Shown here: piece after piece, positions 1 to 49,754 of the stretch | How the letters are laid out: every line of letters starts with the position of its first letter | How positions within the stretch are numbered: the first letter of the stretch is position 1 | Source of the DNA: an uncultured Actinomycetes bacterium | GTDB lineage: Bacteria; Actinomycetota; Thermoleophilia; UBA2241 | Assembly: GCA_963709345.1 (NCBI GenBank) | Contig: CAVPVX010000007.1 | Coordinates: 224,001-288,000, forward strand | Direction: 5' to 3' | DNA: 64,000 nt | Position numbers and translations under genes: made by a program | The notes under the pieces: model-generated | Seen by the model: the letters and a program-made list of their open reading frames with translations, nothing else | The model's database searches: none | Told to the model about the DNA's origin: nothing

Positions 1-729
1 GCTCTGGAGCCGCCCGACGTGGCGACGAGCCCGGTGCTCGGCCGCGCCCTGCGAGCCATCGAAATCCTCAAGGAGCGCTCGCACGACGTGCCCATCGTCG
101 GCTCCGTCGTGTCGCCCTTCTCCCTGCCGGTCATGCAGCTCGGCTTCGAGGCCTATCTCGACCTCATGGTCGAGCGCCGCGACTTGTTCGACCGCCTGAT
201 GGCCGTGAACGAAGAGTTCTGCGTGGCGTGGGCAAACGCCCAGTTCGCAGCCGGGGCCACAGCCGTCGCCTACTTCGACCCGGTCTCTTCCACGACGTGC
301 GTCACGCCGCAGATGTATCTGGGCACCGGCTTCAAGGTGGCGCAGCGCACCATCGCCCGTATCCAGGGCCCCACGGCCACGCACTTCGCCTCCGGACGCT
401 GCGCCGGCATCATCGACGACGTGGCGCAGACCGGCACCGCGGGCGTCGGGGTGAGTGGCGAGGAGGATCTCGCCGCACTCAAACGAGCCGCCGCCGGCAA
501 GCTCACCTTGCTCGGCAACCTCAATGGGATCACCATGCGCAACTGGACGGCGGAGCAGGCGGAGGCCGAGGTCAAGGCGGCCATCGCCGCAGCCGCTCCC
601 GGCGGCGGGTTCATCCTCTCGGACAACCACGGCGAGATCCCCTTCCAGGTGCCCGACGAGGTCCTGCACGCGATCGCCGCAGCGACGCGCCGCTGGGGAC
701 GGTACCCCATCGACTGGGTCGATGACTGA
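1..729 (+). CDS. Uroporphyrinogen decarboxylase / MtaA-CmuA methyltransferase family protein (5' end outside window)
   Basis: Frame is open from the window edge; motifs VVSPFSL, YFDPVSS, LLGNLNG, PGGGFILS...EIP are typical of the URO-D/MtaA fold. Confidence 0.85.
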   Translation, partial: ALEPPDVATSPVLGRALRAIEILKERSHDVPIVGSVVSPFSLPVMQLGFEAYLDLMVERRDLFDRLMAVNEEFCVAWANAQFAAGATAVAYFDPVSSTTCVTPQMYLGTGFKVAQRTIARIQGPTATHFASGRCAGIIDDVAQTGTAGVGVSGEEDLAALKRAAAGKLTLLGNLNGITMRNWTAEQAEAEVKAAIAAAAPGGGFILSDNHGEIPFQVPDEVLHAIAAATRRWGRYPIDWVDD

Positions 730-33384: not shown

Positions 33385-35880
33385 TCAGCGTACCGTGAGG
33401 GCGGTCGCCACCGGGGCGACCTGGCAGTTCCCAGCTCGATCCCGAGCCGTGAACGTGAGCGTGTAGGCGCCGCGGCGCGGCGGCTTCCACACCAAGACGT
33501 TTCGCACCCCCGCCTTCACCCAGCCGAGCGACAAGGTCGCGGTGTCCCGGCCACGGCTGTCGACGACCGCAACGGTGACCCTCACTTTGGGACTGAACGC
33601 ATCGTCGACTCGGTAGGCGATCCTCGCTCTCCCGCCCGAGGCGACACGCGCGGACGCCGGCGCGACGATCCGAGGCTTCGTCAGGTCCACGGTGACCGCC
33701 TCCGTGAGCGACGACGTGCCGACCGCCCCGGCCGCGGTCACGACCAGGTGGTATGCCCCACTGGTCGCCGAGCCACCGCCGTCCAGCGCCCCATCCCACA
33801 CCACCGACCCGCCGCCTGACGGCAGGGTCGCGACAGGGCGGCCCGCGCGAACGACCGAGCAGGTCACTTCAGCCGGACGAGCCAGCTTGAAGCCGAGCGT
33901 CACCGAGTCGTGCCTGCCGTCGCCGTTCGGGGAGAGCGTCTCGCGAGAGAGCGACACGAACCGCAGCGTGCGATCCACCACCACGTAGCGCCGCAGCGTC
34001 GTCGAATTGCCGGCTGGGTCCCGCACCTCGAGGGCGAGCCTCGCTGAGCCCTCGGGGGCCGCGACCAGAGCGCCCCCGTCGCTTATCCGGCCGTCCCAGG
34101 TCACGCGCTGGACGCGCGCGCCCACCGTCGTCCACGACGTGAGCCTGCGCAGTACGGCTCCCGACGACGACAACACGGAGACGCGCGCCGCCGCGGTCTC
34201 GGACGGCTCGAACCGCAGTGTCGTGCGATCGGCGTGGCCGTCGCCGTTCGGGCTGAAGGGGTCAGGCGAGATCCGGACGTTGTCGACGGCGGGCGGCTTC
34301 GTGTCCAACCGCACGACGCCGGTCGCCGGTCGTGCGGTTCCGCTGGGGCCGGTCGCCGTGGCCACAACCGTGTACCGGCCGTCCGGAAGACGTCGACCTC
34401 CGACATCCTTGCCGTCCCAGACAACGTCGGCGAGGGTCCCGTCGCCGGCGACATGCCACACGGTCTCCCCGCCGGCGGCACGGACCTCCAGCCGCCACGA
34501 CACCATCCGCGACACCGTGAAGCCGATCGCCGCGCCGTCGAGCACGCCGTCGCCGTTGGGGCTGATGGCAGGGTGTTCGACGACGAACCCGTAGATCTTG
34601 GGGTGACCTCTGCGGGCCACGACCTGGCGGACGGTAGGCAGCATCGCGTAGAACCGGTTGCCGGGGCAGTCCGTGTGATTGGCGTCGCGGTGCCCGGCGA
34701 TCGCCGGTAGCTTCACTCGCTGGCCGGTCTTGTATTTCTCGCCGGCGCCGCAGACGAGAGTCGCTGTGCTCCGTGGGTCGATGTGATGCACGTCGAGCTT
34801 CCACTCGAGGAGACGCTCGAGCGACGTCAACGCCGACGACGACGGCGTGACGGCGGAGTACGTGCCGATCACGGAGATACCGGTGCTGCCCGTGTTGTAG
34901 CCCAAGGTCTGGGCGCCGATCACGCCTCTCGTGACACCGCCGTACCTGCCCTCGTAGATGACCCCGTACCGATCGATGAGGAAGTTGTAGGCGACGTCGC
35001 TCCAGCCCAGCGCGCGAGTGTGGTAGTGATACACACCGCGCACGATCGCCGGCGCTTGGGAAGCGCTGTAGCTGTTGCCGCTCGCCGTGTGATGGATGAA
35101 GGCCATCTTGACGGGCGCGTAGGAGGGCGAGCCCCTGCGCCACGACTCATTCGCGCCCCATTTGGCGCGGCTCACGATTCGGGGCTTCGCGATCACGGCG
35201 CCGGCCGGAGAGGCCGGGTCGATGGCCGCGACGGCGGCGGCCGCCCGCCTCAGCACGCCGAGAACGGTGGCGGACCGATCCGCGTCCTCGGTGCTGTTGA
35301 TGGCGACCACCTCGACGTCGCGGAGACTGACCGGCGCACCCGGCGCACCGGTCGCGGCGATCTCGACGAACCGGCCGACTCCGGTCCAGATGGGCTCGGT
35401 GAAGGCTTGCTGGACGCCGCCCTCCTCGGCCGCGCGTTCGAGCGCCACCGAATACCAGCGGCTCCACGTTCGGCCGTCCTCGCTCGTGCGGAGATGGACG
35501 GTGACGGCTCCCCTGCGGCCGGGAGGACGACACGTGACGCCGAGCATGGTGAAGCGCATCCCGGCGTCGAGCCGGGACGGAGCGGCGCCTGCGGAAGGGA
35601 CGAGTGTCTGGGTCCTCGCGCCGGCCTCGACCGCCCGCGCCTCTGCGCCGGTCTCCTCGTGCGGCCCGGCGGCGACGACCAGAGGAGTCGGCACCGTGAG
35701 AGACGCGGAGCGCACGGGAGGCGTGCTCACCCAAGCAGCGGCGGCGGCGCTGACGCGGGGCGCCGCCCAGACGGCGCTCAGCGCCCCCATGACGGCCAGC
35801 ACACAGACGGCCGCCACGCGCGCGGCCCTGGTGTGAGGATGAATCCGCGCCATTCCGCTCCCAGCAGACTGCAGTGGCAT
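33385..35880 (-). CDS. N-acetylmuramoyl-L-alanine amidase (Amidase_2/PGRP) with FlgD-Ig-like repeats; start uncertain
   Basis: IVSRAKWGA, FIHHTA, GWSDVAYNFL, IYEGR, GHRD...TDCPG; three SPNGDG...WDG modules; signal peptide. Confidence 0.88.
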   Translation of the reverse strand: MPLQSAGSGMARIHPHTRAARVAAVCVLAVMGALSAVWAAPRVSAAAAAWVSTPPVRSASLTVPTPLVVAAGPHEETGAEARAVEAGARTQTLVPSAGAAPSRLDAGMRFTMLGVTCRPPGRRGAVTVHLRTSEDGRTWSRWYSVALERAAEEGGVQQAFTEPIWTGVGRFVEIAATGAPGAPVSLRDVEVVAINSTEDADRSATVLGVLRRAAAAVAAIDPASPAGAVIAKPRIVSRAKWGANESWRRGSPSYAPVKMAFIHHTASGNSYSASQAPAIVRGVYHYHTRALGWSDVAYNFLIDRYGVIYEGRYGGVTRGVIGAQTLGYNTGSTGISVIGTYSAVTPSSSALTSLERLLEWKLDVHHIDPRSTATLVCGAGEKYKTGQRVKLPAIAGHRDANHTDCPGNRFYAMLPTVRQVVARRGHPKIYGFVVEHPAISPNGDGVLDGAAIGFTVSRMVSWRLEVRAAGGETVWHVAGDGTLADVVWDGKDVGGRRLPDGRYTVVATATGPSGTARPATGVVRLDTKPPAVDNVRISPDPFSPNGDGHADRTTLRFEPSETAAARVSVLSSSGAVLRRLTSWTTVGARVQRVTWDGRISDGGALVAAPEGSARLALEVRDPAGNSTTLRRYVVVDRTLRFVSLSRETLSPNGDGRHDSVTLGFKLARPAEVTCSVVRAGRPVATLPSGGGSVVWDGALDGGGSATSGAYHLVVTAAGAVGTSSLTEAVTVDLTKPRIVAPASARVASGGRARIAYRVDDAFSPKVRVTVAVVDSRGRDTATLSLGWVKAGVRNVLVWKPPRRGAYTLTFTARDRAGNCQVAPVATALTVR

Positions 35881-35989
35881 CAGGGTACCACGGCTCTCGC
35901 GCAGGGCGGCGCTCCCGCCGGCACGCAACGGGCGGCGGGGCGCTCGTCGCGCCCCGCCGCCCGGACACCTTTGACTCGAGGCCGTGCGC

Positions 35990-37372
35990 CTACGTCACCG
36001 GCGCCGACTCCTCGGTCGCTTCGGGAGCCCGCTCACCGTTCATGCAGCTCCAGATGGGATCGTAGAGGCGCTCGACGTCTGAGGAGTACACGTCGAGCTC
36101 AGCCTGCAGATCGGTGATCATGACGTCGCCGCCGGGATGGGTCGGCCGAGCCCCGGTCGCCGCCATGATCTCGCGTGACTGGTGTGGATTGTCGATCCAC
36201 ATACAGGGCATCAGCAGGTTGTGGTTGAACGGCTGACGACTGCGGATCTCCTGGAAGAACGGCGAGTTGAAAGCATCCAGGAGGCTCACGTCACGGACGT
36301 TGTCGGTGGCGAAGTGCGTGAAGATGCATGGCTCCACCCACCCGTCACTGTTGATGTGCATGTAGTGCCTGCCGGCGATACACCCGCTCACCCAGGGCGC
36401 ATCGCCCCAGAAATCGACGGGGAAGAGCGGCTTGGTGTCGCGGATACGATGGATGGCGAGCCGGAACCCGTTACGCTCCTCCGGCGTCAGCATCATGCTC
36501 AGGTCCGGGTGACGCCCCAAGGGCATGTACAGGAAGTTCCAGCTGAGCATGGCTCCCTTGGCGATCAGCGGATCGACGAACTCGTCGCTCATGATGTGCT
36601 GCCAGTTCTTGCGCATCACAGTGCTTGAATAGCCGAAGAGGACACCGGCCTCGCCCAGCTGATCCATGGTCTCCAGGACCTGGTCGTACACGCCGCGCCC
36701 GCGCCGCTGGTCGGTCATCTCGCGATTGCCCTCCAGGCTCAGCATCGGGGCGATGTTCCCGATCTCGGCGAGCCCGTCGATCATGTCTTGATCGAGGAGC
36801 GTGCCGTTCGTGAAGACCTGGAAGTATGCGTCCTTGTTCTCGCGCGCGAAGTCCAGCAACTCGTCCCACATGAAGGGCTCGCCGCCGAGCATCGTGAAGA
36901 GGTAGACGCCCATGTCGTTGCCCTCGTCCACGATCTTCTGCATCAGCCCGCGATCCAGATCCTGATCGGGCGAGTACTCGGCCGCGTAGCACCCCGCACA
37001 GGTGAGATTGCAGCGCATGGTGGGGCTCATGAGGATCGTCGTCGGGGCGTGCATGCCGGTCGAGTCCACGAGCTCTCTGCGCTTTGCGACGCCGCGAAGC
37101 AATGTATTCACAATAAGACATTCGATGAAGCTGTCGCGGCAACGCGGGCTGAGCTTCGAGGTCACGTGTCTGGCGATGAGCAACGCCGGGTGGTCGTCCT
37201 CGACCTTCTCGGTGACGAAACGCACTGAGCCCTTGTACTGTTCCGGGGTGATCTTCTCCGCAAGCTGGAACGCCTTGACGATCTTCGCTTTGTCGTCGCT
37301 GGCGGCCAGCTTGAGCATCTGGTTGATCGCCTGCCTCTGCACGGCCGTATAGAGGCCGTCCGTACGGCTCAT
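35990..37372 (-). CDS. Radical SAM protein with C-terminal SPASM/twitch-type cysteines
   Basis: CNLTCAGC, GGEP, FTNG, GCIAGRHY.HIN, EPC.F.HF, QPFN.NLL.PC. Confidence 0.92.
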   Translation of the reverse strand: MSRTDGLYTAVQRQAINQMLKLAASDDKAKIVKAFQLAEKITPEQYKGSVRFVTEKVEDDHPALLIARHVTSKLSPRCRDSFIECLIVNTLLRGVAKRRELVDSTGMHAPTTILMSPTMRCNLTCAGCYAAEYSPDQDLDRGLMQKIVDEGNDMGVYLFTMLGGEPFMWDELLDFARENKDAYFQVFTNGTLLDQDMIDGLAEIGNIAPMLSLEGNREMTDQRRGRGVYDQVLETMDQLGEAGVLFGYSSTVMRKNWQHIMSDEFVDPLIAKGAMLSWNFLYMPLGRHPDLSMMLTPEERNGFRLAIHRIRDTKPLFPVDFWGDAPWVSGCIAGRHYMHINSDGWVEPCIFTHFATDNVRDVSLLDAFNSPFFQEIRSRQPFNHNLLMPCMWIDNPHQSREIMAATGARPTHPGGDVMITDLQAELDVYSSDVERLYDPIWSCMNGERAPEATEESAPVT

Positions 37373-37884: not shown

Positions 37885-37913
37885 CTCACCTTCTGCACGC
37901 CGGCTGCCGATAC
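37885..37913 (+). promoter_or_regulatory. Putative sigma28 (FliA/WhiG-type) promoter
   Basis: CTCA-N17-GCCGATAC placed so that transcription would start at the riboswitch 5' end. Confidence 0.5.
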
Positions 37914-37917
37914 CCAC

Positions 37918-38002
37918 CTTGAACGACAAAGGCAAACCTGTCGCGAGGCAGGGACGCAAAGCCAGAGGTCTTGGATGATCAAGATAGCTCGGTTGCCGAA
38001 TC
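37918..38002 (+). ncRNA. Cyclic di-GMP-I (GEMM-I) riboswitch
   Basis: AAAGGCAAACC-TGTC-GCGA-GGCA-GGGACGCAAAGCC-AGAGGTCT...GATAGC-TCGGTTGCCGAA: all conserved blocks and a GNRA loop; G at the Vc2 G20-equivalent site. Confidence 0.92.
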
Positions 38003-38144
38003 CGAACTCCGCACTCGCGGATCTCGCCTTCAGCATCTCGCGCGAGGCCAGCGTCCTCCTCCCGACCGGAGCGCCGTCCAGCAACGTCCGCCGGCCTTGA
38101 GCAAGTCGGCAGGCCCAAGGAGCACTGGTGTGGAGGCGATGAAG

Positions 38145-39886
38145 ATGAGACCAAGGTATTTCGTTCTCGCCGTAGCGCTGCTCTGCCTCCTGGTCTTGCC
38201 CGGCACGGCACTGGCCAAGGCCAAGAGCGACGACGACAAGATCGACCAGAGCGTCACGACAGTCCTCAAAGCCACGGGCGGTGATGACGCCGTGCCCGTC
38301 GTGGTGTACACGGAGCCCGATGAGGCGACGGTCGTAGCTGCTGCCGTGCCCGACGTCGTCGAGACCACGGAGATCCCGGCCTTCGATGCCGTCGCCGCTT
38401 ACCTGCTGCCCGACGAGATCGACGCGCTCTCCCTTGACGATTCCGTCCTCATGATCGTCGCCGACAACCCAGTCTTCGGCTTCGACTACGCCAGCTCGCT
38501 CGACATCACCAATCTCGCGATCGGGCTGGATGCAGTCGCATCACCGGCCGAGGGCGGCCCGGACGGCAGCGGCGTGGGCGTCGCCGTCATCGACAGTGGC
38601 ATCACGACGACGTCCGACCTGGGCGACAGCCGCATCGTCGGCTGGAAGGACTTCGTCGACAAGAGAAGGCGGCCGTACGACGACGCCGGACACGGGACCT
38701 TCGTGGCCGGCCTCATCGCCGGAGACGGCACCGCCTCGCTCCCGCTCGACCAGGGCGGCTACGCGACGATGCAGTTCCGCGGCGTCGCCCCGGCGGCCAA
38801 CATCATCGGCGTCAAGGTCCTGGACAGCAACGGCAGCGGGTCGCGCATCCGCGGTCATGTCGGCCATCGTCTGGACGGTCGCCCACAGGAACGCCTACAA
38901 CATCCGCGTGATGAACCTGTCGCTCGGGGCCAACCCGGTCGCCCCCGTGGAGTTCGACCCCATCGCGCGGGCCGTGGAGTTCGCCTGGAAGCACGGCGTG
39001 ACGGTCGTCTGCGCCGCCGGCAACGAGGGCGAGTTCGGCCCCGGCGGGATCCTGTCTCCGGGCAACAGCCCCTACGTCCTGACGGTCGGCGCCAGCGATA
39101 CCCGCCAGACGGCAACGCTCGACGACGACGCCGTCACCTACTACAGCTCGGTCGGGCCGACGCTCTTCGACGAGTTCGCCAAGCCCGACGTCGTGGCGCC
39201 GGGTAACCGGCTCATCTCGACGAGGGTGCCGGGCTCGTACATCGACGTCAACTACCCGCAGAACCTGATCCCGGTGGGAAGCTACGCGCCCACGGCGCCG
39301 GCAGACACTGAAGCCGAGCTATCTGATGCTGTCCGGCACCAGCACGTCCGCGCCGGTCACAGCCGGCGCAGCGGCGCTGATGCTCGGCGCCGACCCAAGC
39401 CTGACCCCCGACGACGTCAAGCTGCGCCTCATGGCCACGGCCGACCCCCTGCCCGGAGCGACCCGCCACCAGCAAGGCGCAGGCCTGATCGACGTCGACG
39501 AGGCTCTGGCCGACACCTCGAGGTCCGAAGGGTATGCTCTCTCTGAAGACCTCGGTGACGGCACGACGATACTCAGCAAGAACGTCTATGCCGCCTGGGA
39601 CACGACGGCATGGAAGAAGTACGGATGGACGAAGTTCCGCTGGACGAAGTTCCGCTGGACGAAGTTCCGCTGGGTGAAGTTCCGCTGGACGGACACCGAA
39701 GTGGAAGCGACGAAGTTCCGGTGGGTGAAGTTCCGCTGGACGGACGTGGGAGCGACGAAGTTCCGCTGGACAGACGTGGGATGGACCAAGTTCCGGTGGA
39801 CGTCCGACTACCAGGCGACCAAGTTCCGGTGGACGGAGTACGACTGGACCAAGTTCAGATGGACGATCCTCATCGAAGGACAGTGA
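38145..39886 (+). CDS. Secreted subtilisin-like S8 peptidase with C-terminal KFRW repeats; two +1 frameshifts (~38838, ~39310), probably assembly errors
   Basis: Signal peptide and propeptide; VAVIDSG (Asp), GHGTFVAG (His), AAGN (oxyanion), KPDVVAPG, SGTSTSAP (Ser) spread over three frames. Confidence 0.88.
39626..39862 (+). repeat. Coding tandem repeat, 15-bp unit TGGACGAAGTTCCGC (WTKFR), 10 copies of KFRW
   Basis: Directly visible; synonymous variants (CGC/CGG/AGA, ACG/ACC) keep the peptide invariant. Confidence 0.95.
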
Positions 39887-41415
39887 CCCTGGACTCAGCT
39901 GAAGTCATCGACGGTAACGAGACGGCCGTGCGGAAACGCACGGCCGTCTCGCTCTACGTGGGCCTCGTCTGCCTCGCGGCCGCAGCCGTCTCAGCGGCAG
40001 CCGGCTTGAGCGAGCCCGCGCCGTTCACGCTCAACATCGTGGCGTTCATGATCCTCGCCACGCTCACCGACCTCCGAGAGATCAAGCTGCCGCTGGTCGG
40101 CGATGTGACTCTGTCGTTCGTGCCGGTGCTCGCCGCCCTCGTCGCCCTCGGGCTGTGGCCGGCGATGGCGGTCGCGGCCGTCAGCGGCGTGACCGCCGCC
40201 TGGGTGACGCGCGACCCGCTCAAGATCGCCTTCAACATCGGGAACTACGTGATCTCCACCTATCTGGCCGGCCTCCTGTATCTGGCGTTGGCGCCCGAAG
40301 GCGGCGACTTCATGACCAAGGTCCTCCCCACCTTCGGAGCGACGATCGTGGACTTCGCCGTCCACACGGCGCTCCTCGCCGGCGTGATCGCCCTCTCGAC
40401 GCAGGACCACGCCGTCAAGGTGTGGCGCACCAACTACCAGTGGGCGCTGCCGGGGTATCTCGCCGGCTCGACGCTGGCCCTGCTCGTAGCGGCCCTCTAT
40501 CTCTGGCTCGGGGTGCCGGGGATGCTGCTCGGGATCCCGCCGCTCTATCTCATCTACTACTCGTACGACATCTACGTGAAACGGGCCCGGGAGCGCCAGA
40601 CATTCGACGCCGAGCGAGACGACTTCCACGAGGAGCTCGCCGCTTCGGTGCACCTGCACGACGAGCTGCGCACGACGCAGCTGAAGGTGGCCGCCGAGAT
40701 CGAGCGCGCCCGCCGTATCCAGACCGACCTCCTCCCCACCGGCACGCCCGACATCGAAGGCCTGGAACTCGACCAACGGATCGAGTTCCTCGGCGAGATG
40801 GGGGGCGACTACTACGACTACATCCCCTTCGGCGACGGCCGTCTCGCGATCGTGTGCGGCGACGTCATGGGCAAGGGCCTCGCCGCCGCCCTGATCATGG
40901 CCATGGCGCGCTCGCTGCTGCACAACGCAATTGCTCCCGACAAGAGCCCGGGCGAGATCATGGCCGAGGTGAACGACGGCCTTGCACGCGACCTCGAGGG
41001 CCAGCGCCTGCCGTACTTCCTGACGCTGGCCATCGCGGCGTACGACCCCGCCGGCCACAGCCTCGTGGTCGCCGGCGGGGGGCACAACCCGGTCCTGATC
41101 GCCGACGCCGACGGGATCCGACAGGTGCCGTCTCAGGGGGCCGCCCTCGGCGTGCGCACGGGACTCAGCTACCCTGAGGACGACATCGCCCTCGGCACGG
41201 GAGCCACGGTCGCCCTGTACACCGACGGACTGACCGAGGCGCGCAATGCCGCCGGCGAACTGTACGGCCCGGAGCGGCTCGAGGCGTCGCTCGAACGGTG
41301 TCGGACGCGGCCCGTTCGTGACACACTTGAAGACATGTGGAGCGACGTCGCCGCGTTCCGCGGCGAGAGGGTAGCAACGGACGACGCGACGCTCCTGCTC
41401 GCGCGCTTCGTTTGA
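39883..41415 (+). CDS. Membrane-bound PP2C/SpoIIE-family Ser/Thr phosphatase with multi-TM sensor domain
   Basis: GTGA overlap with the protease stop; about 7 TM helices; GGDYYD, CGDVMGKG, YTDGLTE, DDAT. Confidence 0.9.
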   Translation: MTLDSAEVIDGNETAVRKRTAVSLYVGLVCLAAAAVSAAAGLSEPAPFTLNIVAFMILATLTDLREIKLPLVGDVTLSFVPVLAALVALGLWPAMAVAAVSGVTAAWVTRDPLKIAFNIGNYVISTYLAGLLYLALAPEGGDFMTKVLPTFGATIVDFAVHTALLAGVIALSTQDHAVKVWRTNYQWALPGYLAGSTLALLVAALYLWLGVPGMLLGIPPLYLIYYSYDIYVKRARERQTFDAERDDFHEELAASVHLHDELRTTQLKVAAEIERARRIQTDLLPTGTPDIEGLELDQRIEFLGEMGGDYYDYIPFGDGRLAIVCGDVMGKGLAAALIMAMARSLLHNAIAPDKSPGEIMAEVNDGLARDLEGQRLPYFLTLAIAAYDPAGHSLVVAGGGHNPVLIADADGIRQVPSQGAALGVRTGLSYPEDDIALGTGATVALYTDGLTEARNAAGELYGPERLEASLERCRTRPVRDTLEDMWSDVAAFRGERVATDDATLLLARFV

Positions 41416-41458
41416 GGCGGCGGGACCGCTGAGCACCGAACGACAGGGGTCGCGGCAG

Positions 41459-42232
41459 ATGCCCGACACGACGGCCGGCATGCCGGCCTCTCTTCAGGTC
41501 TACCGGTACAGAGCCGGCGCCGCGCGCGTCGAGGCCGTGGTCGGCGAGATGGAGCCGGATCTCCCCCACGAAGACCTTGTCGCGCATGCCACGGAGGCGA
41601 TGACGCAGGGCACCTTCATGTGCTACGCCGTACCGCAGAGAGACGATTTCGTCGCCGACGAGATCTGCTTCATCCCCCAGGGCGACCGCTGCGACATCCT
41701 CAGCATCAAGACCAACGGCTGGCAGCGCCACCACGGCGATCACCGTCGAAGCCTCGTGGAGATCCTCAACAACATGGCCGCGGCCGTCGCCTGCGGCAAG
41801 CTCCGCATACTCGACGAAGACGAGCTCCGCGTCGAAGTGGAGCGGGGGGAGCCGGCGCTCCACTTCGACATCGACAGAACGGCCGACCTCCAGACGGCCC
41901 GGGAGGCCGTCGACGCGCTGCTGCAGGAGGCGGGTCTCGACGACATCAACCGGCAGCGCACGATCCTCTGCATCTCAGAGGCCGTGACCAACATGCTGCT
42001 GCACGGCGGCGGTCACGGCTCCATGACACTACGCACGCTCGACGACCGCCTCCGGATAGTGGTGGCCGACTCGGGTCCCGGCCTCAACTTCCTGAACTGG
42101 ATCGACCCGCCCTCCAAAGGCGGTCAGGCGTCGATGGGCTACGGCTACAAGATCATCCTCGACTACCTCGACGCCGTCGGCCTGCGCACGACCCCGGTGG
42201 GAACTACGTTACTATTGGACCGCACGATCTAA
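41459..42232 (+). CDS. Anti-sigma factor / Ser kinase (RsbW/SpoIIAB-like HATPase) with unrecognised N-terminal domain
   Basis: SEAVTNMLLHG (N box), DSGPG (G1), MGYGYKII (G2). Confidence 0.82.
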   Translation: MPDTTAGMPASLQVYRYRAGAARVEAVVGEMEPDLPHEDLVAHATEAMTQGTFMCYAVPQRDDFVADEICFIPQGDRCDILSIKTNGWQRHHGDHRRSLVEILNNMAAAVACGKLRILDEDELRVEVERGEPALHFDIDRTADLQTAREAVDALLQEAGLDDINRQRTILCISEAVTNMLLHGGGHGSMTLRTLDDRLRIVVADSGPGLNFLNWIDPPSKGGQASMGYGYKIILDYLDAVGLRTTPVGTTLLLDRTI

Positions 42233-42249
42233 CCGAAGCGGGAGATCAC

Positions 42250-42561
42250 ATGCTGCGCACATCCGTCGCCCAAGGCCCGGCGCCCACCGTCTACCTCGCC
42301 GGCGAGATGGACCTCGACTGCGCCGACGCGCTGCGTGAGGCCGTCGCCGACGCCGCGAAGGGCGCCGAGGTGGTGGCTCTCGACTTCGCGAGCGTGGAGT
42401 TCATCGACTCCTCGGGCACGGGGATCTTCGTGCGTCTGTGCCTCGACCTCAAGAGCCAAGGCACGCCGCTTGTGGCACGCAACCTCTCGCCGGCCGTGCG
42501 CGGCGTGTTCGACATGCTGCGCGTGCGCGAGCTCGTGGGCGACGAGGTCTTCCCCGGCTGA
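42250..42561 (+). CDS. STAS anti-sigma-factor antagonist (RsbV/SpoIIAA-like)
   Basis: LAGEMDL, LDFASVEFIDSSG with the phospho-acceptor Ser; GGGAG RBS. Confidence 0.9.
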   Translation: MLRTSVAQGPAPTVYLAGEMDLDCADALREAVADAAKGAEVVALDFASVEFIDSSGTGIFVRLCLDLKSQGTPLVARNLSPAVRGVFDMLRVRELVGDEVFPG

Positions 42562-42582: not shown

Positions 42583-42879
42583 TCAGACGCGCTGCAGGGG
42601 CCCCACCCCGGCCAGCAGCACCACGGTCGCCGCGTCGACGCAGTCGCTGACACTGGCGACGCACGCGTCCCCGCTCAGGCGGTCTCCGTCACGAGTCACC
42701 ATCGTGAACGCCATCGACGACCCGGCCGCAAGATGCTCACGGAACTCATCCGGATCTGACGGGGATTCGATTCGCAAGCACCACGACGCCATCGTGCTCC
42801 CCTCACTCTGCAGGCGCGCACGGAAGAAGCCGAGTTCGCGGCGGTCGTGACTGACTCTGAGCAGTCGCCGCGCGTCCAT
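42583..42879 (-). CDS. Hypothetical protein
   Basis: 98-aa ORF with plausible composition, downstream of a same-strand ORF. Confidence 0.45.
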   Translation of the reverse strand: MDARRLLRVSHDRRELGFFRARLQSEGSTMASWCLRIESPSDPDEFREHLAAGSSMAFTMVTRDGDRLSGDACVASVSDCVDAATVVLLAGVGPLQRV

Positions 42880-43361: not shown

Positions 43362-43543
43362 GAAGAGGCGTTCGCGCCGGGACGGCGCGTCCCTGCATGC
43401 CGTGGTGAGCCGCGCAGAGGCCGCCGGGTGAAGTCGGTGAGCACGCCCTCAAGGCGTGAGAGTATCGGCCCACGCGGGAGGCTCGCGTGAGACGCGAGCG
43501 ATGACCGCTCGGGTGGCCGTCTCACCGACAGATGGAGGAGCTC

Positions 43544-44089
43544 ATGGCGCGGACGTGGCTTTCGATCCAAGTCGACCTGGTGCAGGGGCATGGCCGGCAC
43601 CTCTGGCCGCGGCCGGGGCGGATCTTCGCCGCCGCCCGCTCCCATACGTTCGCGCAGCTCGCCGAGGCGATCGACGACGCGTTCGCGCGCTGGGATCGCG
43701 CCCACCTCCATGAGTTCAGCCTCGCCGATGGGACGCGCCTCACGACGCCGTACGAGGACTGGGAGGAACTCGGCCCGGTGATCGACGATCGCGCGACCAA
43801 GCTCAGCCGGCTCCAGCCGGGCGAGCAGTTCGTCTATGTATTCGACTTCGGCGACGACTGGGCTCACCTCTGCACGGTCGGCGACAGACGTATCGACCCT
43901 CTCGAGATGGTCGGGATCGTGCCCCGTGAGCCTCTCCCATATTGGGGCTGGGGCGACATCCCCGACCAGTACCGACGCCGCTGGGATGGGGACGACGGAG
44001 AGTCGGACCCGCCGCAGGATCCCGGACTCTCCGATCTGCCCGCACTGCAGCCATGGTGGGGAGTCGAGGGACCCAAACACAAGCGCTGA
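43544..44089 (+). CDS. Plasmid pRiA4b ORF-3 family protein
   Basis: TFAQLAEAIDDAF, HLHEF, YVFDFGDDWAH; GGAGGAG RBS. Confidence 0.8.
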   Translation: MARTWLSIQVDLVQGHGRHLWPRPGRIFAAARSHTFAQLAEAIDDAFARWDRAHLHEFSLADGTRLTTPYEDWEELGPVIDDRATKLSRLQPGEQFVYVFDFGDDWAHLCTVGDRRIDPLEMVGIVPREPLPYWGWGDIPDQYRRRWDGDDGESDPPQDPGLSDLPALQPWWGVEGPKHKR

Positions 44090-44210
44090 CGCAAGCTGCC
44101 GGCTCACCCTGAGAGGAATGCCAGGTCCGTCAAGGCCGTGAATGAGCGCATCCGCTCCATCCGCTTCGCTGCTGCTCGGCCCTCCCATGCGGCGCAGGCG
44201 CTGCTCCGGA

Positions 44211-44280
44211 GCCAGGCGCAGCGCCGTCTCGGCGGTCACGCGGCGCTTGCGCAGGACGATGGAGACGCTCGTCCTCGGCG
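44211..44280 (-). pseudogene. HigA-like antitoxin HTH fragment
   Basis: VSIVLRKRRVTAETALRLA resembles the HigA helix I..GKR.IT..TALRLA. Confidence 0.35.
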
Positions 44281-44441
44281 GATGGTCGGGGTCATGGGTC
44301 TGGGGAGTCCTTGCCGTCATCTTCGCGATCGTCGGCGTGGTCATCAACCTCATCCGCAAGGGAACGTTCCGCGATCTCCAGGCGACGGTCGGCGGCTGGT
44401 CATCGCTCCGCTCATGCCGCCGCCGATCCGCGAGGATCGCG

Positions 44442-45151
44442 TCACCCGAGGGCACGCCGACGGCGCTGCGGACGCTGCTGCTTCGTGTGAAAGGTGGGCA
44501 CGTTCTGGCTCGAAGCCGGAACGATGCCCGGCCGCGGGTCCGCTTGCCTTCCACAGGGCGCTTGCGGCCCAACGAAGGGCAGACCGAGAGCCGCCATTCT
44601 GCCGAAGACGGTGTCGTATCGCCCGGCCCAATGCTTGCTGCTCCGCTCACCGTATCCGTGGTAGATGTTGAGGTCGCCCGCCGCGATGACGCGATGCCCG
44701 CGCTCGCTCCCGACGAAGACCGAGAGGTCGGAGATGAGGCGGTGGACCGAGCCATCGGCGTAGATCCAGTTGCTGTGCGTCGTGCTGTGAGGCCTCTCCC
44801 AGGCTGCATACATGGACACGACCACAAGGGGGTCGCCCTCACGCGGCGTCACCAGCGCAGCGGCCAAGGTCCCCGACCGGCTCACCGCAAGGTCGCCCCC
44901 GTTGGCCTCGTCCACCGTCGAAGACTCAAGCCATGCCACCTGGACGCGGTCGGTCAACTTCACGACCGCGGTCCGCCAATGTCGTCTTCCCACGCCGGCG
45001 GTTCTCCAGGGGGCGGGATCGACCCCGACGCGTCGGGCAACGTCGCCAGCGGTTCGCAGGCCTCCTGTAGCAGGGCGATGTCGGCGTCAGTCTCGAGAAG
45101 CCGACGCCACGCCTCGTGCCGCTGAGCGATGTTCCAGGTGATGATCTTCAT
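44442..45151 (-). pseudogene. Endonuclease/exonuclease/phosphatase family, frameshifted (~45030) and 3'-truncated
   Basis: IITWNI, DIALLQEA, IAAGDLN, VPTFH present; terminal DY/SDH motifs absent. Confidence 0.7.
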
Positions 45152-45195
45152 CATGCTCCTCGCAGCCGCCGAGGCGAATGGTGTTGCCTCACCGA

Positions 45196-45687
45196 CTAGC
45201 CTCTTTGTCCGTGGGCCGATCGGCCCTCGCTCACGCCACGCATGAACTCCATGACCGCCGGCCAGTCCGGGAACCGCGACGAGCCGAAGTGGATGAACCC
45301 GTCGCCGAACGCGTCGGCGCCGTTGTTCGGCCGGTTGTCGATCATGAAGTCGCCGCGGTTGAGGTCCTTGTGATGGCTCAGGATGAGCCGCTTGTGCGCG
45401 GCCTCGCCGAGGTGCCTCTGGATCCACCTCACTTTGTCCGACCAAGCCGACGGGTTCTTCCAGGGCGCGGTGGAGAGTACGTAGGTGTCGAATCTCTCCG
45501 CCAACTCCAGATAGGCGTCGATGGCGCCCGGCATCGGGCCCATCAGCGCGAAGATGCCGGGGATCTCGTCTGCGTTGTCTGCGAACTTGTCCTGCGTCTC
45601 GGCCGCGACGCGCTCCAGTCCGGACGCGAAGTCGACGAGCACGCCGTCCATGTCGACGTAGACGATCTTCTTCTTGCGTTCCTCCAT
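45196..45687 (-). CDS. 5'(3')-deoxyribonucleotidase (NT5C, HAD family)
   Basis: YVDMDGVLVDF, PMPGA, LSTAPW, KRLILSHHK.LNRGDF.ID. Confidence 0.88.
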   Translation of the reverse strand: MEERKKKIVYVDMDGVLVDFASGLERVAAETQDKFADNADEIPGIFALMGPMPGAIDAYLELAERFDTYVLSTAPWKNPSAWSDKVRWIQRHLGEAAHKRLILSHHKDLNRGDFMIDNRPNNGADAFGDGFIHFGSSRFPDWPAVMEFMRGVSEGRSAHGQRG

Positions 45688-45788
45688 CGGCGCACCTTCC
45701 TGTCGGAGTTCTCTCAAAGCGGCTTCGAGCCGCCGGCGTCAGACTCGGCTGGCTCCCTTGTTCTCGCCGCTGGCATCAGGTGATCCGC

Positions 45789-46928
45789 TCAGGCAGAGCC
45801 GTACTGATCCAGCAGAGCGACGACCTCCGCGCGACCACGCATCTCGGCCATGTCCCTCGGCGTGTAGCCCTGCGCCTCGGGGGCCGGAGCGGCGCCTCGC
45901 TCAAGCAAAAAGCGCACAAGCTCGACGTGCCCAAGCTCGGCGGCGCGGTGCAGCGAGGTGAAGCCGCGGTCGTCACGGGCGTCAACGTCGGCGCCGTGCA
46001 CGGCCAGGAAGTCCACCTTCTCGAGGCTACCGTCTTGCACCGCGAACATCAGCGGGGTCGCGCCCTGCTCCGACTGGGCGTCAACCGGAGAGCCGAGTTC
46101 GAGGAGCAAGGCCATCATCGTCGCATCAGGCACGGCAGTGGCCCAGTGTAGCGGCGTGAGGCCGTCGGGCGCCAGGAGGTCGACGGGCACCCCGGCCGAC
46201 ACCTGAGCCTCGACCCCGGCGGCGTCGCACTCGGCGACGGCGATGTGCAGCAGCGAGTACGTGCGCAGCGGCACATCGGGATCCTGCAGGGGCACGGGAT
46301 GCGGCGTGGCGAACGACGCGCGATTGCCGAACATCGCGAAGCACCACATCGCCGCCCTGCCGGGATCCGCCTCGAGGCCCGGCGCAAGCGGAGCCGGATA
46401 CTCGCCGCGAAGCGCGTGACTCCTGAGCAGGAAGTCGAGCACGCGGCACGTCAGTTCCGGCGCCTCGTCCTCGGACGTGAACGTCCCGCGGACCGAGACC
46501 ACTGCGACGCGGTCCGCGCGCTGTTCGAGCTGTGCGATCGCGGCGACGCGCCGCTTCCATCCGCGCACGAAAAGGATCTGCCCGCCGTGGCAGAAGAGCG
46601 CCCACTTGTGTTCCATCGCCTCTGGAGTGAAGAGCACGCCGTCGGCAAGGAGACGGTCGACAGGGTAGCTGAGCTCGACCGGAACGACGCTCGTCACCGC
46701 CGGCTCCTCTCCGATGAAGCCGGCGCCGTCATCTCCCCGATAGGACACCGCGTTCGCCGCGCACTGCTGGTCGGTCGTGGTCGACATCACCGTCTGCGTG
46801 AGCGGCCGGACGTCGATGACCGGGACGCCCCACGGGTTGCGGTCGGCGTCGACCCACCCGATGTCGGAGAACTGGGAGAGGTCGGCCTCTTCGCCGGACC
46901 CTCCCGGACCGCCGCCGATCCCGGTCAC
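45789..46928 (-). CDS. Ankyrin-repeat protein with unknown N-terminal domain
   Basis: TPLHWA, TPLMFA, TSLHRA, TPRDMA; GGAGGAGG RBS before GTG. Confidence 0.85.
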   Translation of the reverse strand: MTGIGGGPGGSGEEADLSQFSDIGWVDADRNPWGVPVIDVRPLTQTVMSTTTDQQCAANAVSYRGDDGAGFIGEEPAVTSVVPVELSYPVDRLLADGVLFTPEAMEHKWALFCHGGQILFVRGWKRRVAAIAQLEQRADRVAVVSVRGTFTSEDEAPELTCRVLDFLLRSHALRGEYPAPLAPGLEADPGRAAMWCFAMFGNRASFATPHPVPLQDPDVPLRTYSLLHIAVAECDAAGVEAQVSAGVPVDLLAPDGLTPLHWATAVPDATMMALLLELGSPVDAQSEQGATPLMFAVQDGSLEKVDFLAVHGADVDARDDRGFTSLHRAAELGHVELVRFLLERGAAPAPEAQGYTPRDMAEMRGRAEVVALLDQYGSA

Positions 46929-47209
46929 GTCTCCTCCTCCCCGGCTGATCCGTCGTCCACGGGCAGCAGCCGCTCGAAGAACGCGACGGCGTGCATCATC
47001 TCGTCCATGTCGAAGACCAGGTGCGGCCGGGCGAGATAGCCGACCTGTTCGGCCAGCGGACCCTTCACGATCACCGACGCGGGCGACGTCAGCCAACTCG
47101 TCTCCCGCTCGATGAAGTCCTTGAAAGCCAGGACCTGCGGCTTTCTCGGACCGAGCAGGTCGAAGAGGGCGCCGTACATCGCGTCCAGGTTGTCGAGCGT
47201 CAGGGTCAT
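46925..47209 (-). CDS. Short hypothetical protein, possibly chimeric (HD-hydrolase-like N-terminus ending at WLTSPAS)
   Basis: Start/stop overlaps with both neighbours; the H/HD motifs expected after PAS are absent. Confidence 0.45.
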   Translation of the reverse strand: MTLTLDNLDAMYGALFDLLGPRKPQVLAFKDFIERETSWLTSPASVIVKGPLAEQVGYLARPHLVFDMDEMMHAVAFFERLLPVDDGSAGEEET

Positions 47210-48457
47210 GTGAGCGTCTTCGCGTGGTCGAGGAGCCTCACCACGTCCCGCCACTCGGGGTCGTCGTCACCGAGCTCGTCCACTTCGTCTGGGATGAGAT
47301 ACGCGACGGCGGGGCCCTTCTTGTCGTAGGGCTTCTCACCGTCCAGCCAGCGAGCGTTTGGGCCCTTGTAGCCGGCAAGCGACGCGACCGGGATCTCTCG
47401 AAGGGCCGTCGCCGGCTGCCCGTCGGTGCGCCGCTTGAGCACCAGGCCGATACCGCCTGGCTGGGGGTGGATCTGAGCGATGTTCATCTTCCTGGCGTAG
47501 CTGAGGTTCACGTACTGCGACTTGCGGCCGCGCTCCTCGAAGCCGCCGATCCGGACTATCCGATTGGCGAACGCGGCGCGATCTCCGAAGACCTCCTCGA
47601 TCGTCGCGCTCGGCTGCCACGCCGCGGCCCAGCCTTGGGTTCCTGACGGCGACGCCGACTCCCGCGGAGATGTCGCCGCGCGCGGCCGCGCCGGCGCGCG
47701 CGAGGCCGTGCGCAGATCTGACACGGCCTCGAGCCCGAGCGCCCCAAGCTGCTCGATGAGCGCCGTTTGCACGGCCGCATCGTTGGACGAGACGTGGTGC
47801 GCGCCATCGGCCGAGTACCCGACGAAGATCACGACCAGCCTCTTGCCGGCCGGCAAGTGCAGTTCCTGGCAGATCTCGAGCGCTCGCGAGATGGTCGTCG
47901 CTCCTCGCGTCCCTCGGGAGTCGTAGAACTCGACCGCCCATCCCTGCTGGAGGTCGTGCAGGGCGAGCTCGCGATACAGCTTGGAGACGTCACTCGTCCC
48001 CGTCAGCGTCCCAACACTGTGGTCCACCATCTCCGGGTCGATTACCTTGTCGAACGGCTTGTTCTTGCCGAGCTCGAACGCGAACAGGGCGGTCAGTCGT
48101 TCCGCACACCTGTCCTCAAGATCGCACGACGGAGCGGGCGGTCGGGCCAGGGCAAGGTCGAAACGGGCGCCCTCGCGCCGTCTCGCCGCCGCTGATGTAC
48201 TTCGCCACTGTGTAGTGCTCGGACTGCAGGAGTAGCGTGGGATAGCCCGTCCGCGGATCGTCGTCGTCGAGGCGATCTCCGCCATTCACGTGAAGGCGTG
48301 CGTAGAGGTAGTCGCGAATGCCCGTGTCCCCGTGAAAGCCGAACGGATGAGTCAGCAGCTTCGCGACGGTCTCCAACACGGAGGCCATGGTGATCTGTTC
48401 GCAGAAGCTCTCGAAGTCGGCGTCATCCGCCGCTTGGTTTTGGCCGTCGTCAGTCAT
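47206..48457 (-). pseudogene. Hypothetical two-domain protein, frameshift at ~48170 (possible PD-(D/E)XK-like fold)
   Basis: ORF 48116..48457 joins 47206..48285 by removing one G from GGG; ARFDLAL...FAFELG. Confidence 0.5.
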
Positions 48458-48579
48458 TGCGCGTGTCCCAAGCCGTTCCTGGTCGGGGTGTTCGATCCCG
48501 GGTCATCGTATGGGCACCTTAGCAGGGGCCTCGGACGGAGGCCTCACGAGCTGCGTGCTGCCGGCGCACGAGACTCCGG

Positions 48580-48918
48580 TCAGGCTCCCAGGATCTCGTT
48601 CAGGCCCTCGATCACCCGCGCGACCTCCTCCGGTGAGACGGCCCCGAGCTTGCGGCCGATGCGGTGCACCGAGAGCGTGCGGATCTGGCTGATCTTGATC
48701 CACGCCGGCTTGGGAAGCTGCGCGGGGCCCACCTCCAGAGTCAGGGGGAAGCCGGCTCGCGGAGGCTGAGTCGTCAACGCCACCGCGATCACCGTGCCTG
48801 AGCGCTCGTTGAAGACGTCGGCGCTCAGGATGAGGACGGGCCGCCGGCCCGCCTGCTCGTGCCCGCGCGTCGGGCTCAGATCCGCCCAGCGGACCTCGCC
48901 CCTCAGTAGTCTGGCCAC
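48580..48918 (-). CDS. mazF: PemK/MazF family toxin
   Basis: [27 protein letters not shown]...FN, QIRTLS..RI. Confidence 0.93.
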
Positions 48919-49145
48919 TCGGCCAGCTCCCCACTCATGCCTTCCTCGGCGAGAGCCTGCTCGAGGCCCGGGTCGAGCTTCGCACACTCCTGCGCCAGGC
49001 GACTGTGAGCCAATCGCGAGAGCTTCTCGTCCAAGGCTTCCTGGATGGCCTGGCTACGATTGGGAAAGCGGTGCTCGGACACCAGCCTGTCAAGCGCGCC
49101 GAGCGTCTCTTCGTCGATCGTGATGGCGATCTTGGCTCGTCCCAT
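48903..49145 (-). CDS. Ribbon-helix-helix antitoxin
   Basis: [38 protein letters not shown]; overlaps the toxin start. Confidence 0.88.
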
Positions 49146-49158
49146 GAGGTACCTCCGA

Positions 49159-49177
49159 GTATGATGATATATCATAC
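49159..49177. promoter_or_regulatory. Palindromic toxin-antitoxin autoregulatory operator
   Basis: GTATGAT-GATAT-ATCATAC directly upstream of the antitoxin RBS. Confidence 0.7.
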
Positions 49178-49678
49178 CCGCTGCGCTTTCAAGGGACCGC
49201 TGAAGCGCGACCTCTCCACCGTCATGTTCATCCGTTCGGTCCATGCGGCCTGGAGCCTAGCCGGAGTCGCCATACGGCACGACGATGACAATCAGGCAGC
49301 AGCGGTGACGTTCTGCGCCTAATCACCCCTGGCGGCAAGCGAACCGAGCAACAGCGGACTGGGCTGGTCGGAGGGGAAGGCGCAGCACAGTGATGGCGCG
49401 CGCCGCGAAGCGCTCTTGCACAGGACACCCGGCCGTCGTCGATCTACAGCTCGACGCCCGCCCGCAGCTTACGGATCACGTCCTTGAAGGTTTCCAGGTT
49501 CTCGCCGACGGCCGTCAGCGGGACGTTCGGCTCGTAGAGCGGCCACCGGTGACTTGGGCGAAGGACTGCGAGGCGCGTTTCAGCACCGCCAGCTGGCGCT
49601 CGCGCACGCTGGTGTGCAAAGCCAGCTCGGCCTTCAGCGCCTTGGCGCTGCCAAACATGCTGGATGTCGAGGGAATTG

Positions 49679-49754
49679 TGGTGGCGAGGGTCAGAATTGA
49701 ACTGACGACACCACGATTTTCAGTCGTGTGCTCTACCAACTGAGCTACCTCGCC
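49679..49754 (-). tRNA. tRNA-Phe (GAA)
   Basis: GGCGAGGTAGCTCAGTTGGTAGAGCACACGACTGAAAATCGTGGTGTCGTCAGTTCAATTCTGACCCTCGCCACCA, 76 nt, encoded CCA. Confidence 0.97.

Follow-up and report, generated by a model that had tools for sequence, protein, structure and literature searches.

A repeat-tailed secreted subtilase and an adjacent MASE9 sensor domain form a candidate peptide-communication system in an uncultured Thermoleophilia bacterium

The window analysed here, a stretch of 64,000 nucleotides from the genome of an uncultured Actinomycetes bacterium of the Thermoleophilia (contig CAVPVX010000007.1, positions 224,001 to 288,000), carries at positions 37922-42561 a real unit composed of a riboswitch, a secreted S8 subtilase with a repeat tail, a membrane PP2C phosphatase, an RsbW-like kinase and a STAS protein. 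A preliminary description had proposed this same-strand unit, and a covariance-model score of 73.4 bits for the riboswitch, together with Pfam matches for S8, PP2C, HATPase_c_2 and STAS, confirms it; the interpretation as peptide signalling that came with it appears supported as well. Between close relatives, the tail of the subtilase and the MASE9 sensor domain of the phosphatase are exchanged as one cassette, which is the signature of a peptide pherotype. We consider it likely that the protease releases a multicopy peptide from its own tail as the ligand of its cognate MASE9 receptor. With somewhat less assurance, we favour the broader view that these genes represent a new class of peptide communication, in which a single subtilase chain would serve both as maturase and as multicopy pheromone precursor, while a MASE9 domain with an inverted vitamin-transporter fold would be the receptor, with PP2C/sigma, cyclic di-GMP (c-di-GMP) or two-component outputs, recombining pherotypes, as many as four orthogonal channels in one genome and a distribution over four phyla.

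The repeat tail and the MASE9 domain

The tail (39629..39883, forward strand) is a candidate multicopy peptide precursor made up of ten [T/V]KFRW units in a single frame. The number of copies given in the preliminary description is exact: KFRW occurs 10 times at 39632-39862, within the last 85 codons of the S8 gene, eight times after T and twice after V, and nowhere else in the six frames of the window, the cluster being the only one of its kind in the 3.1-Mb genome. The units are separated by acidic spacers (TDTEVEA, TDVGA, TDVGW, TSDYQA and TEYDW). The repeat unit is spelled by three DNA sequences in this tail and by more than one in 36/60 loci of the family, where the copy number ranges from 1 to 13 (median 8) and the motifs read KFRW, KFKW, KYKW, KYRW, KYAW, KFAW, KYSW, RYRW, RYSW or KFQW. 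S8 tails of all phyla often end with a hydrophobic stretch followed by G-[D/E/Q], as does the C-terminal TILIEGQ here (39863-39883); NGD, GE and GEN are found in others (P0121-P0270).

An orthologue of the phosphatase is present in 71 of the 89 family genomes, and 69 loci were fetched. A K/R-[FY]-x-W tail lies directly upstream of the MASE9-PP2C gene in 68 of them, the 69th (L226) being another MASE9 paralogue. On trees built from 60 loci in nine motif classes (10 of 70 rows were dropped for a missing S8 or for phosphatase frameshifts), the motif class has to change 9 times on the MASE9 tree, where the minimum is 8, versus 14 times on that of S8, 15 on that of PP2C and 13 on that of RsbW. Over a subset of 40 rows, the KFRW loci fall into one MASE9 clade with a support of 96, and the approximately unbiased (AU) test rejects such a clade for S8 (p-AU 1.8e-41), PP2C (5.5e-17) and RsbW (5.5e-7). 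Where two loci are 72% or more identical in PP2C, their MASE9 domains share 53-60% identity in every one of the 184 KFRW-KFKW pairs, and reach a median of 86% (range 61-99) over the 265 pairs that carry the same motif.

The exchange is best seen by superposing the window onto its nearest relative, L029, whose tail reads KFKW-S instead of KFRW. The two share 88% identity in S8, 57% in MASE9, 91% in PP2C, 96% in RsbW and 95% in STAS, and their DNA identity drops from 79-98% to 59-72% over ~39550-40600 only and then recovers. The silent-site identity of 0.42 in MASE9, versus 0.69-0.82 in the flanks, confirms that this tract has been replaced. The pair L189-L194 behaves likewise (0.41 versus 0.74-0.75); the L024-L032 tract shows the silent-site drop on its 3' side only, and L187-L192 is a weak case. 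Within the KFRW type, MASE9 is the most conserved domain, with 88% protein identity at a silent-site identity of 0.54, like that of its neighbours; this ordinary silent divergence indicates that the domain is held by purifying selection rather than by a recent sweep. Trees, identities and silent sites thus give a positive answer, independent of the flanking catalytic domains, to the check that the preliminary description had asked for on co-variation of repeat and receptor: in the family, candidate signal and sensor vary in step and are exchanged as one cassette, as in a pherotype.

The pairing extends beyond the family. The family S8 profile yielded 150 representatives at 50% clustering, 96 of which have a Trp-periodic tail with a five- or six-residue period according to an automatic rule (motifs such as IVWGD, ALWGD, ITWDN and SSWS). 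From an alignment of 74 representatives, 78 GTDB loci were fetched out of the best 80 of 562, and 72 of them end in a tail that is periodic or rich in Trp, recognized 58 times by the rule and 14 times by eye, ten of the latter with non-Trp hexamers such as GVVMGD. A MASE9-like gene lies within 6 kb in 44/72 repeat-tailed loci versus 0/6 tail-less loci, all from Bacillota; the linked pairs belong to Acidobacteriota, Actinomycetota, Chloroflexota and Pseudomonadota. To seed the MASE9 profile, Pfam matches were picked irrespective of S8, and the seed alone recovered all neighbours but one; the Pfam model itself matches 88/121 aligned members at E 0.01. Among 301 Actinomycetota genomes, MASE9 directly follows S8 in 28 of the best 30 loci, and 25/27 Actinomycetota loci are linked when three unpublished genomes (G263, G307 and G345) are set aside. 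Apart from the S8s that went into the profile, 62 more were compared with MASE9 matches over the top 150 rows of each list, and at least 43 of them are followed by a MASE9 within 3.5 kb. None of 13 short S8s has a MASE9 beside it among the matches listed, and the five of them that were fetched have neither tail nor MASE9. The outputs in 41 MASE9 neighbours scanned are HD-GYP(-GAF)(-GGDEF), GGDEF-EAL, GGDEF-HD-GYP, a histidine kinase or none, and a single genome may hold three or four pairs that differ in motif, as in G354 (GASWH, GASWS, GRSWS and ARQWS). The check on whether one and the same membrane domain adjoins such proteases likewise has a positive answer: MASE9 lies beside tailed S8s across phyla, with PP2C, HD-GYP, GGDEF-EAL or kinase outputs, though it is not exclusive to repeat-tailed proteases.

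Two variants of this arrangement were observed. Stand-alone MASE9 genes of ~250 residues directly follow SVVWG-type S8s in Acidobacteriota (L075, L076, L083, L087, L090, L098, L100, L107, L109, L114, L124, L145 and L148), and L087 and L148 have in addition a divergent MASE9-HD-GYP-GAF-GGDEF gene; a stand-alone MASE9 is possibly a co-receptor or a peptide sink. Trp-free hexamer tails (GVVMGD, GILMSD, GVLVGD, GITLSE and GLVLSE) occur within the same S8 subfamily at L086, L095, L115, L122, L123, L135, L138, L140, L142 and L143, with a MASE9 neighbour in 5/10.

The AlphaFold model of the MASE9 domain, with a predicted local distance difference test (pLDDT) score of 93.9, is composed of eight helices and a β-hairpin; eight membrane helices are predicted where the preliminary description had counted about seven, and the domain, left unnamed there, is MASE9 (PF20972). 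Foldseek ranks the S components of energy-coupling factor (ECF) transporters first (best E 1.2e-3), the top 15 matches of VIA-align are S components or BtuM (Z 14.6-8.2 over 153-189 residues, root mean square deviation 3.2-4.4), and the MASE9 sequence profile weakly matches RibU (E 0.0011); helical bundles can reach such Z scores by chance, but the three methods converge on a single family. The model displays the six-helix fold and the L1 β-hairpin typical of S components, and MASE9 is predicted to have their ligand-binding fold. Loops L1, L3 and L5 hold ~2-3 Lys and Arg residues per sequence, versus 0-0.9 in the opposite loops, and the hairpin and the pocket-lid loops are Lys/Arg-rich both in the family and in distant MASE9s. 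Because of these charged lid loops (positive-inside rule) and of the cytoplasmic enzyme that follows the last helix, we infer that the fold is inverted in the membrane with respect to the transporters. The outside position of L1, L3 and L5 and the transport with an ECF module, which go with a true S component, are not found for MASE9. Three acidic residues of MASE9 (D63, E66 and D157) are invariant, but lineages whose motifs are neutral do not conserve them.

Components of the operon and neighbouring genes

The S8 gene (38139..39886, forward strand) is spread over three frames in this assembly, and PF00082 matches all three pieces. A Sec-type signal peptide (~38139-38216) and a propeptide precede the catalytic domain, which belongs to S8 by its Pfam match, its triad of Asp (38592), His (38691) and Ser (39341) and its oxyanion Asn (39022). 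These four residues are retained in 102/108 loci, the remaining six being truncated, and the S8 core in the model of an intact relative has a pLDDT mostly above 90. Searches with this protein returned generic subtilisins only from the PDB and five records from plasmids, all of them Bacillales S8s that cover at most 67% of the query and end before the tail.

The S8 gene is not a single open reading frame in the window, and the preliminary description missed two frameshifts in it. The first (38838..38840, forward strand) is one extra base: contigs of the public runs X2, X3 and X4 are one base shorter, and 15 relatives continue in frame at this site. The second (39311..39313, forward strand) is again one extra base, absent from contigs of runs X1 and X4, and the X1 contig covers it over 263 nucleotides with one mismatch. 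The gene is in a single frame in 14/20 genus loci, the other relatives being broken elsewhere or at an assembly gap. Frame changes affect 11/91 genes of this assembly when compared with the intact genes of a relative, and its indel rate is 13 events in 112 kb, or 0.12 per kb. Both S8 frameshifts are probably assembly errors; an S8 pseudogene, as in a 'signal-null cheater', is less likely, given the contigs of the other runs and the assembly indel rate. A sigma-factor gene split over two frames (G000:C7:51096-51789, reverse strand) is a further sign of assembly indels.

Upstream of S8, a c-di-GMP-I (GEMM) riboswitch aptamer of the Rfam c-di-GMP-I clan (37922..38001, forward strand) scores well above the gathering score of 59 of the Rfam covariance model (E 1.7e-15) and ends 137 nucleotides before the S8 start. 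Its Rfam label is the 'GGC' variant; an A replaces the G of the variant model, so that the aptamer looks like the standard c-di-GMP type. With the numbering G20/A47/C92, which we take to apply, G is present at position 20 in 55/56 aptamer matches of the family and A at position 47 in 56/56. The riboswitch pattern lies upstream of the operon in 56/69 family loci, contig ends explaining some of the misses, and of only 2/78 distant loci. The putative c-di-GMP gating put forward in the preliminary description is a trait of this family and is rare in distant loci. GEMM riboswitches have been described as controlling envelope and signalling genes (PMC1950547). Scans of the operon leader found neither a terminator-like site nor a promoter, and the stability of the leader fold does not exceed that of shuffles (z -0.16). 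One family riboswitch has A at the presumed position 20 and is a possible cyclic GMP-AMP (cGAMP) type, and a Chthonomonadaceae S8 is preceded by two tandem GEMM-like aptamers; the sites behind these two remarks are L037:3122, L082:5225 + 5428 and L092:5472. A DUF1638-PAS-GGDEF protein encoded 35 kb upstream, at 455-2728 (forward strand), is a possible source of c-di-GMP.

The TGA stop codon of S8 (39884-39886) overlaps the GTG start of the phosphatase gene (39883-39885), so that the GTGA coupling noted earlier (39883-39886) is indeed present. The phosphatase (39883..41415, forward strand, 510 residues) consists of the MASE9 domain (~39916-40590; PF20972, E 6e-6, 26.7 bits versus a gathering score of 24.3; top Atlas matches MASE9 clusters at 0.95), a coiled linker and the SpoIIE/PP2C domain (40834-41409; PF07228, E 2e-46), whose metal-binding motifs are kept in 60/60 family loci. 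NCBI assigns close homologues of the phosphatase to the Thermoleophilia, and the genome thereby falls within the Actinomycetota. The next gene encodes an RsbW/SpoIIAB-like Ser kinase or anti-sigma factor (41459..42232, forward strand; PF13581, E 4e-12), whose score stays under the NCBIfam thresholds of both RsbA and SpoIIAB; its kinase motifs are conserved across the family. The N-terminal ~130 residues of the kinase (41459-41860) are conserved though they have no Pfam match; they carry the stretch GW.RH.GDHRRSL.EIL...AAAVA.G.L, invariant family-wide, and may form a second, degenerate kinase-like or regulatory domain. The last gene (42250..42561, forward strand; PF13466 and PF01740) encodes an RsbV/SpoIIAA-like STAS anti-anti-sigma factor with the DSSG serine at 42409. 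It reaches 49.1 bits versus a TIGR00377 cut-off of 53.45, and FIDSSG is found in 55/60 family loci, the others being four gaps and one FVDSSG. The earlier naming of kinase and STAS protein is upheld by the Pfam matches, and the PP2C metal motifs, the GHKL kinase and the STAS protein with its phospho-Ser place the three genes among the partner-switching modules. No sigma factor lies within the operon; a SigB/F/G-family sigma factor over its cut-off (TIGR02980) is encoded 145 kb away, at C7:116129-116806. A second MASE9 open reading frame is found at G000:C7:706882-708447 (reverse strand), with no S8 among the long open reading frames within ~5 kb.

Among the neighbouring genes, a divergent radical SAM/SPASM gene (35990-37372, reverse strand) is syntenic in 19/20 genus loci. 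It was considered as a tail-modifying enzyme and left out of the system: it scores below every NCBIfam maturase cut-off shown and is missing at L035, other phyla not having been searched for it. An Amidase_2-FlgD_ig protein (33385-35928, reverse strand) is syntenic in 18/20 genus loci. A gene of 98 codons convergent on the operon (42583-42879, reverse strand), with no Pfam or NCBIfam match, is kept in 15/20. The region 43532-49754, with pRiA4b ORF3-like, NT5C, ankyrin and other genes by a tRNA (49682-49754), looks like a variable island.

Candidate mechanism and competing explanations

Subtilases remove their own propeptide, and PP2C/RsbW/STAS modules switch sigma factors. In the mechanism that we favour, the S8 protein would be exported by Sec and mature itself, and the mature enzyme would cut its own unstructured tail after Trp, giving ~10 TKFRW per molecule. 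Cleavage after Trp is suggested because the propeptide junction V-F-G-F|D shares its aromatic P3/P1 spacing with K-F-R-W|T. The S1 pocket gives a hint, confounded by kinship, that it matches the aromatic residue of the repeat: at the position that we take to be 166, His is present in 5/10 non-Trp tails, and it is absent from the seven commonest residues there in 92 Trp tails. TKFRW, the most likely peptide, would be the strain-specific ligand of the adjacent MASE9; its binding would switch PP2C, the STAS serine would be dephosphorylated, and the dephosphorylated STAS protein would sequester the RsbW-like protein and thereby free a SigB/F-type sigma factor (candidate C7:116129). The riboswitch would make the operon respond to high c-di-GMP, and in other lineages the same peptide-sensor pair would feed HD-GYP, GGDEF-EAL or histidine-kinase outputs.

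Several observations weigh against this mechanism. The S8 gene of the window is frameshifted twice, and at the assembly's own rate two events in one gene have P ~0.02. By the positive-inside rule the pocket-lid loops face the cytoplasm, and the route of an outside peptide to the site is not explained. Tails with one or a few copies could stem from repeats collapsed in assembly, and the acidic spacers keep a five-residue Trp period, which also fits a stacked β-structure. The motif classes were named after the identity table had been seen, which makes the AU test formally weaker; related loci are not independent in the co-variation counts, and L214 (KFKW) falls outside the KFKW receptor clade. 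The tail adjoins MASE9 and therefore one recombination tract moves both, so that co-transfer alone is not binding. Across Actinomycetota orders, the partial correlation with the motif is 0.19 for MASE9 versus 0.16 for S8, and motif/receptor co-variation is inseparable from shared descent. Finally, 9 of the 30 best class-level MASE9 matches have a Trp tail within 1.5 kb upstream, 64/143 listed MASE9s adjoin a listed S8, and 2/5 genomes with an orphan tailed S8, incomplete ones, have no MASE9 match.

The apparently cytoplasmic lid loops and the type-specific inner L1 hairpin (99% identity within KFRW, 57% between types) would suit a receptor that reads the tail while it is still attached to the protease or as a long fragment. 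Such a tail would be a tethered kin tag or serve to monitor export or maturation from the cytoplasmic side, its repeats providing avidity rather than amplification, and the same co-variation of motif and receptor would follow. We nevertheless hold this to be unlikely: an active subtilase is expected to cut an unstructured aromatic tail, allele swaps and several orthogonal pairs per genome suit intercellular signalling better, and between KFRW and KFKW loci the outer halves of the MASE9 helices diverge more (47% identity) than the inner ones (64%).

Rather improbable is a structural tail, whether β-solenoid, amyloid or membrane/cell-wall anchor, which would travel with a MASE9 diversifying for another ligand. 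It would account for the regular period of five or six residues in 96 of the 150 nearest representatives, for the charge-complementary spacers and for a weak Atlas lead (score 0.87, to a cluster in which 16% of the members are hexapeptide-repeat proteins), but not readily for a copy number that varies from 1 to 13, for an exact motif residue that follows the receptor allele or for the extra purifying selection on MASE9 within a motif type, and it leaves the cross-phylum adjacency unexplained. The AlphaFold model of a relative shows no fold in the tail (pLDDT below 50), a weak argument since its alignment mixed motifs. Hardly credible is a tail that yields cationic Trp-rich antimicrobial peptides with MASE9 as cognate sensor or immunity protein: KFRW and KFKW units presumably resemble short cationic membrane-active peptides, toxin-immunity pairs co-vary too and output-less stand-alone MASE9 genes follow many Acidobacteriota S8s, but the motifs outside the family are mostly neutral or acidic (SVVWG, NIVWG and GSSWS) and most receptors are fused to signalling enzymes.

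Comparison with known systems and biological meaning

As in Bacillus comQXP and staphylococcal agr, the genes for the peptide source and the membrane receptor stand side by side in a pherotype-like block; in comQXP, a hypervariable block of peptide and sensor between conserved flanks has been described as defining communication groups (PMC4408185). Unlike these systems, the present one lacks AgrB/ComQ as well as a distinct small precursor; the multicopy tail of the processing protease itself is the candidate signal, and the receptor is a MASE9 with interchangeable outputs, here PP2C, not a histidine kinase. The maturase, small precursor gene and histidine-kinase receptor of agr and comQXP are thus missing from an operon made up of S8, MASE9-PP2C, RsbW-like and STAS genes. 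The RNPP systems (Phr/Rap, PapR/PlcR and arbitrium) use linear peptides of 5-6 residues, secreted proteases including subtilisins, and cytoplasmic tetratricopeptide repeat (TPR) receptors. They resemble the present pairs in their sequence-specific groups and several orthogonal pairs per genome, and differ in that here the receptor is in the membrane and precursor and protease are one polypeptide with 1-20 or more copies; the unit contains no gene for a cytoplasmic TPR receptor that would stand next to one for a short exported propeptide. Because the defining genes of agr, comQXP and Phr are absent, the system belongs to none of them, though it would work alike.

Multi-core precursors include yeast alpha-factor, cyanobactin PatE with the S8 proteases PatA/PatG, and the autocatalytic plant BURP peptide cyclases. 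With them the tail shares repeated cores with acidic spacers, and either S8 processing or the union of enzyme and cores in one chain; unlike them, the present system is bacterial with a co-varying membrane receptor, and its S8 scores 23.9 versus a cut-off of 421 for the PatA/PatG family. The output resembles RsbU-RsbW-RsbV and SpoIIE-SpoIIAB-SpoIIAA in having a PP2C, a GHKL-type Ser kinase and a STAS protein with DSSG in this order, and departs from them by the lack of a sigma factor in the operon, the MASE9 input and the extra N-terminal domain of the kinase.

MASE9 has been described as an eight-segment sensor fused to HD-GYP, HD-GYP-GAF-GGDEF and GGDEF-EAL; no ligand is named, and binding is suggested to take place inside the membrane (Galperin and Chou, bioRxiv 10.1101/2021.11.05.467447). 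The parts of this description available to us name no peptidase neighbour, PP2C or kinase fusion or S-component fold. The predicted fold is that of the ECF S components RibU, ThiT, BioY, NikM and CbiM (Z up to 14.6 over 160-189 residues, root mean square deviation ~3.5), from which MASE9 differs by its signalling fusions, its extra flanking helices and its inverted topology, and no ECF A/T partners are seen in the operon. A literature search, in which subscription papers were mostly not covered, found no description of a repeat-tailed subtilase paired with MASE9 and none of MASE9 with an S-component fold. As far as this search reaches, the system is undescribed; it is real at the genomic level, and its chemistry is putative.

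To our knowledge, most peptide quorum sensing described so far comes from Bacillota, and the carriers of the present system are mostly uncultured soil and sediment lineages. If the proposed reading is true, a candidate ligand could be read from the gene next to each receptor, and synthetic biology would gain useful natural peptide-receptor pairs that are orthogonal and have modular outputs. The orphan sensor domain MASE9, through which c-di-GMP enzymes are controlled, would also receive its first ligand, and a transporter fold would be seen at work upside down, in the role of a receptor. For Thermoleophilia, other Actinomycetota and Acidobacteriota, such a system would mean a peptide language in abundant, little-studied soil lineages.

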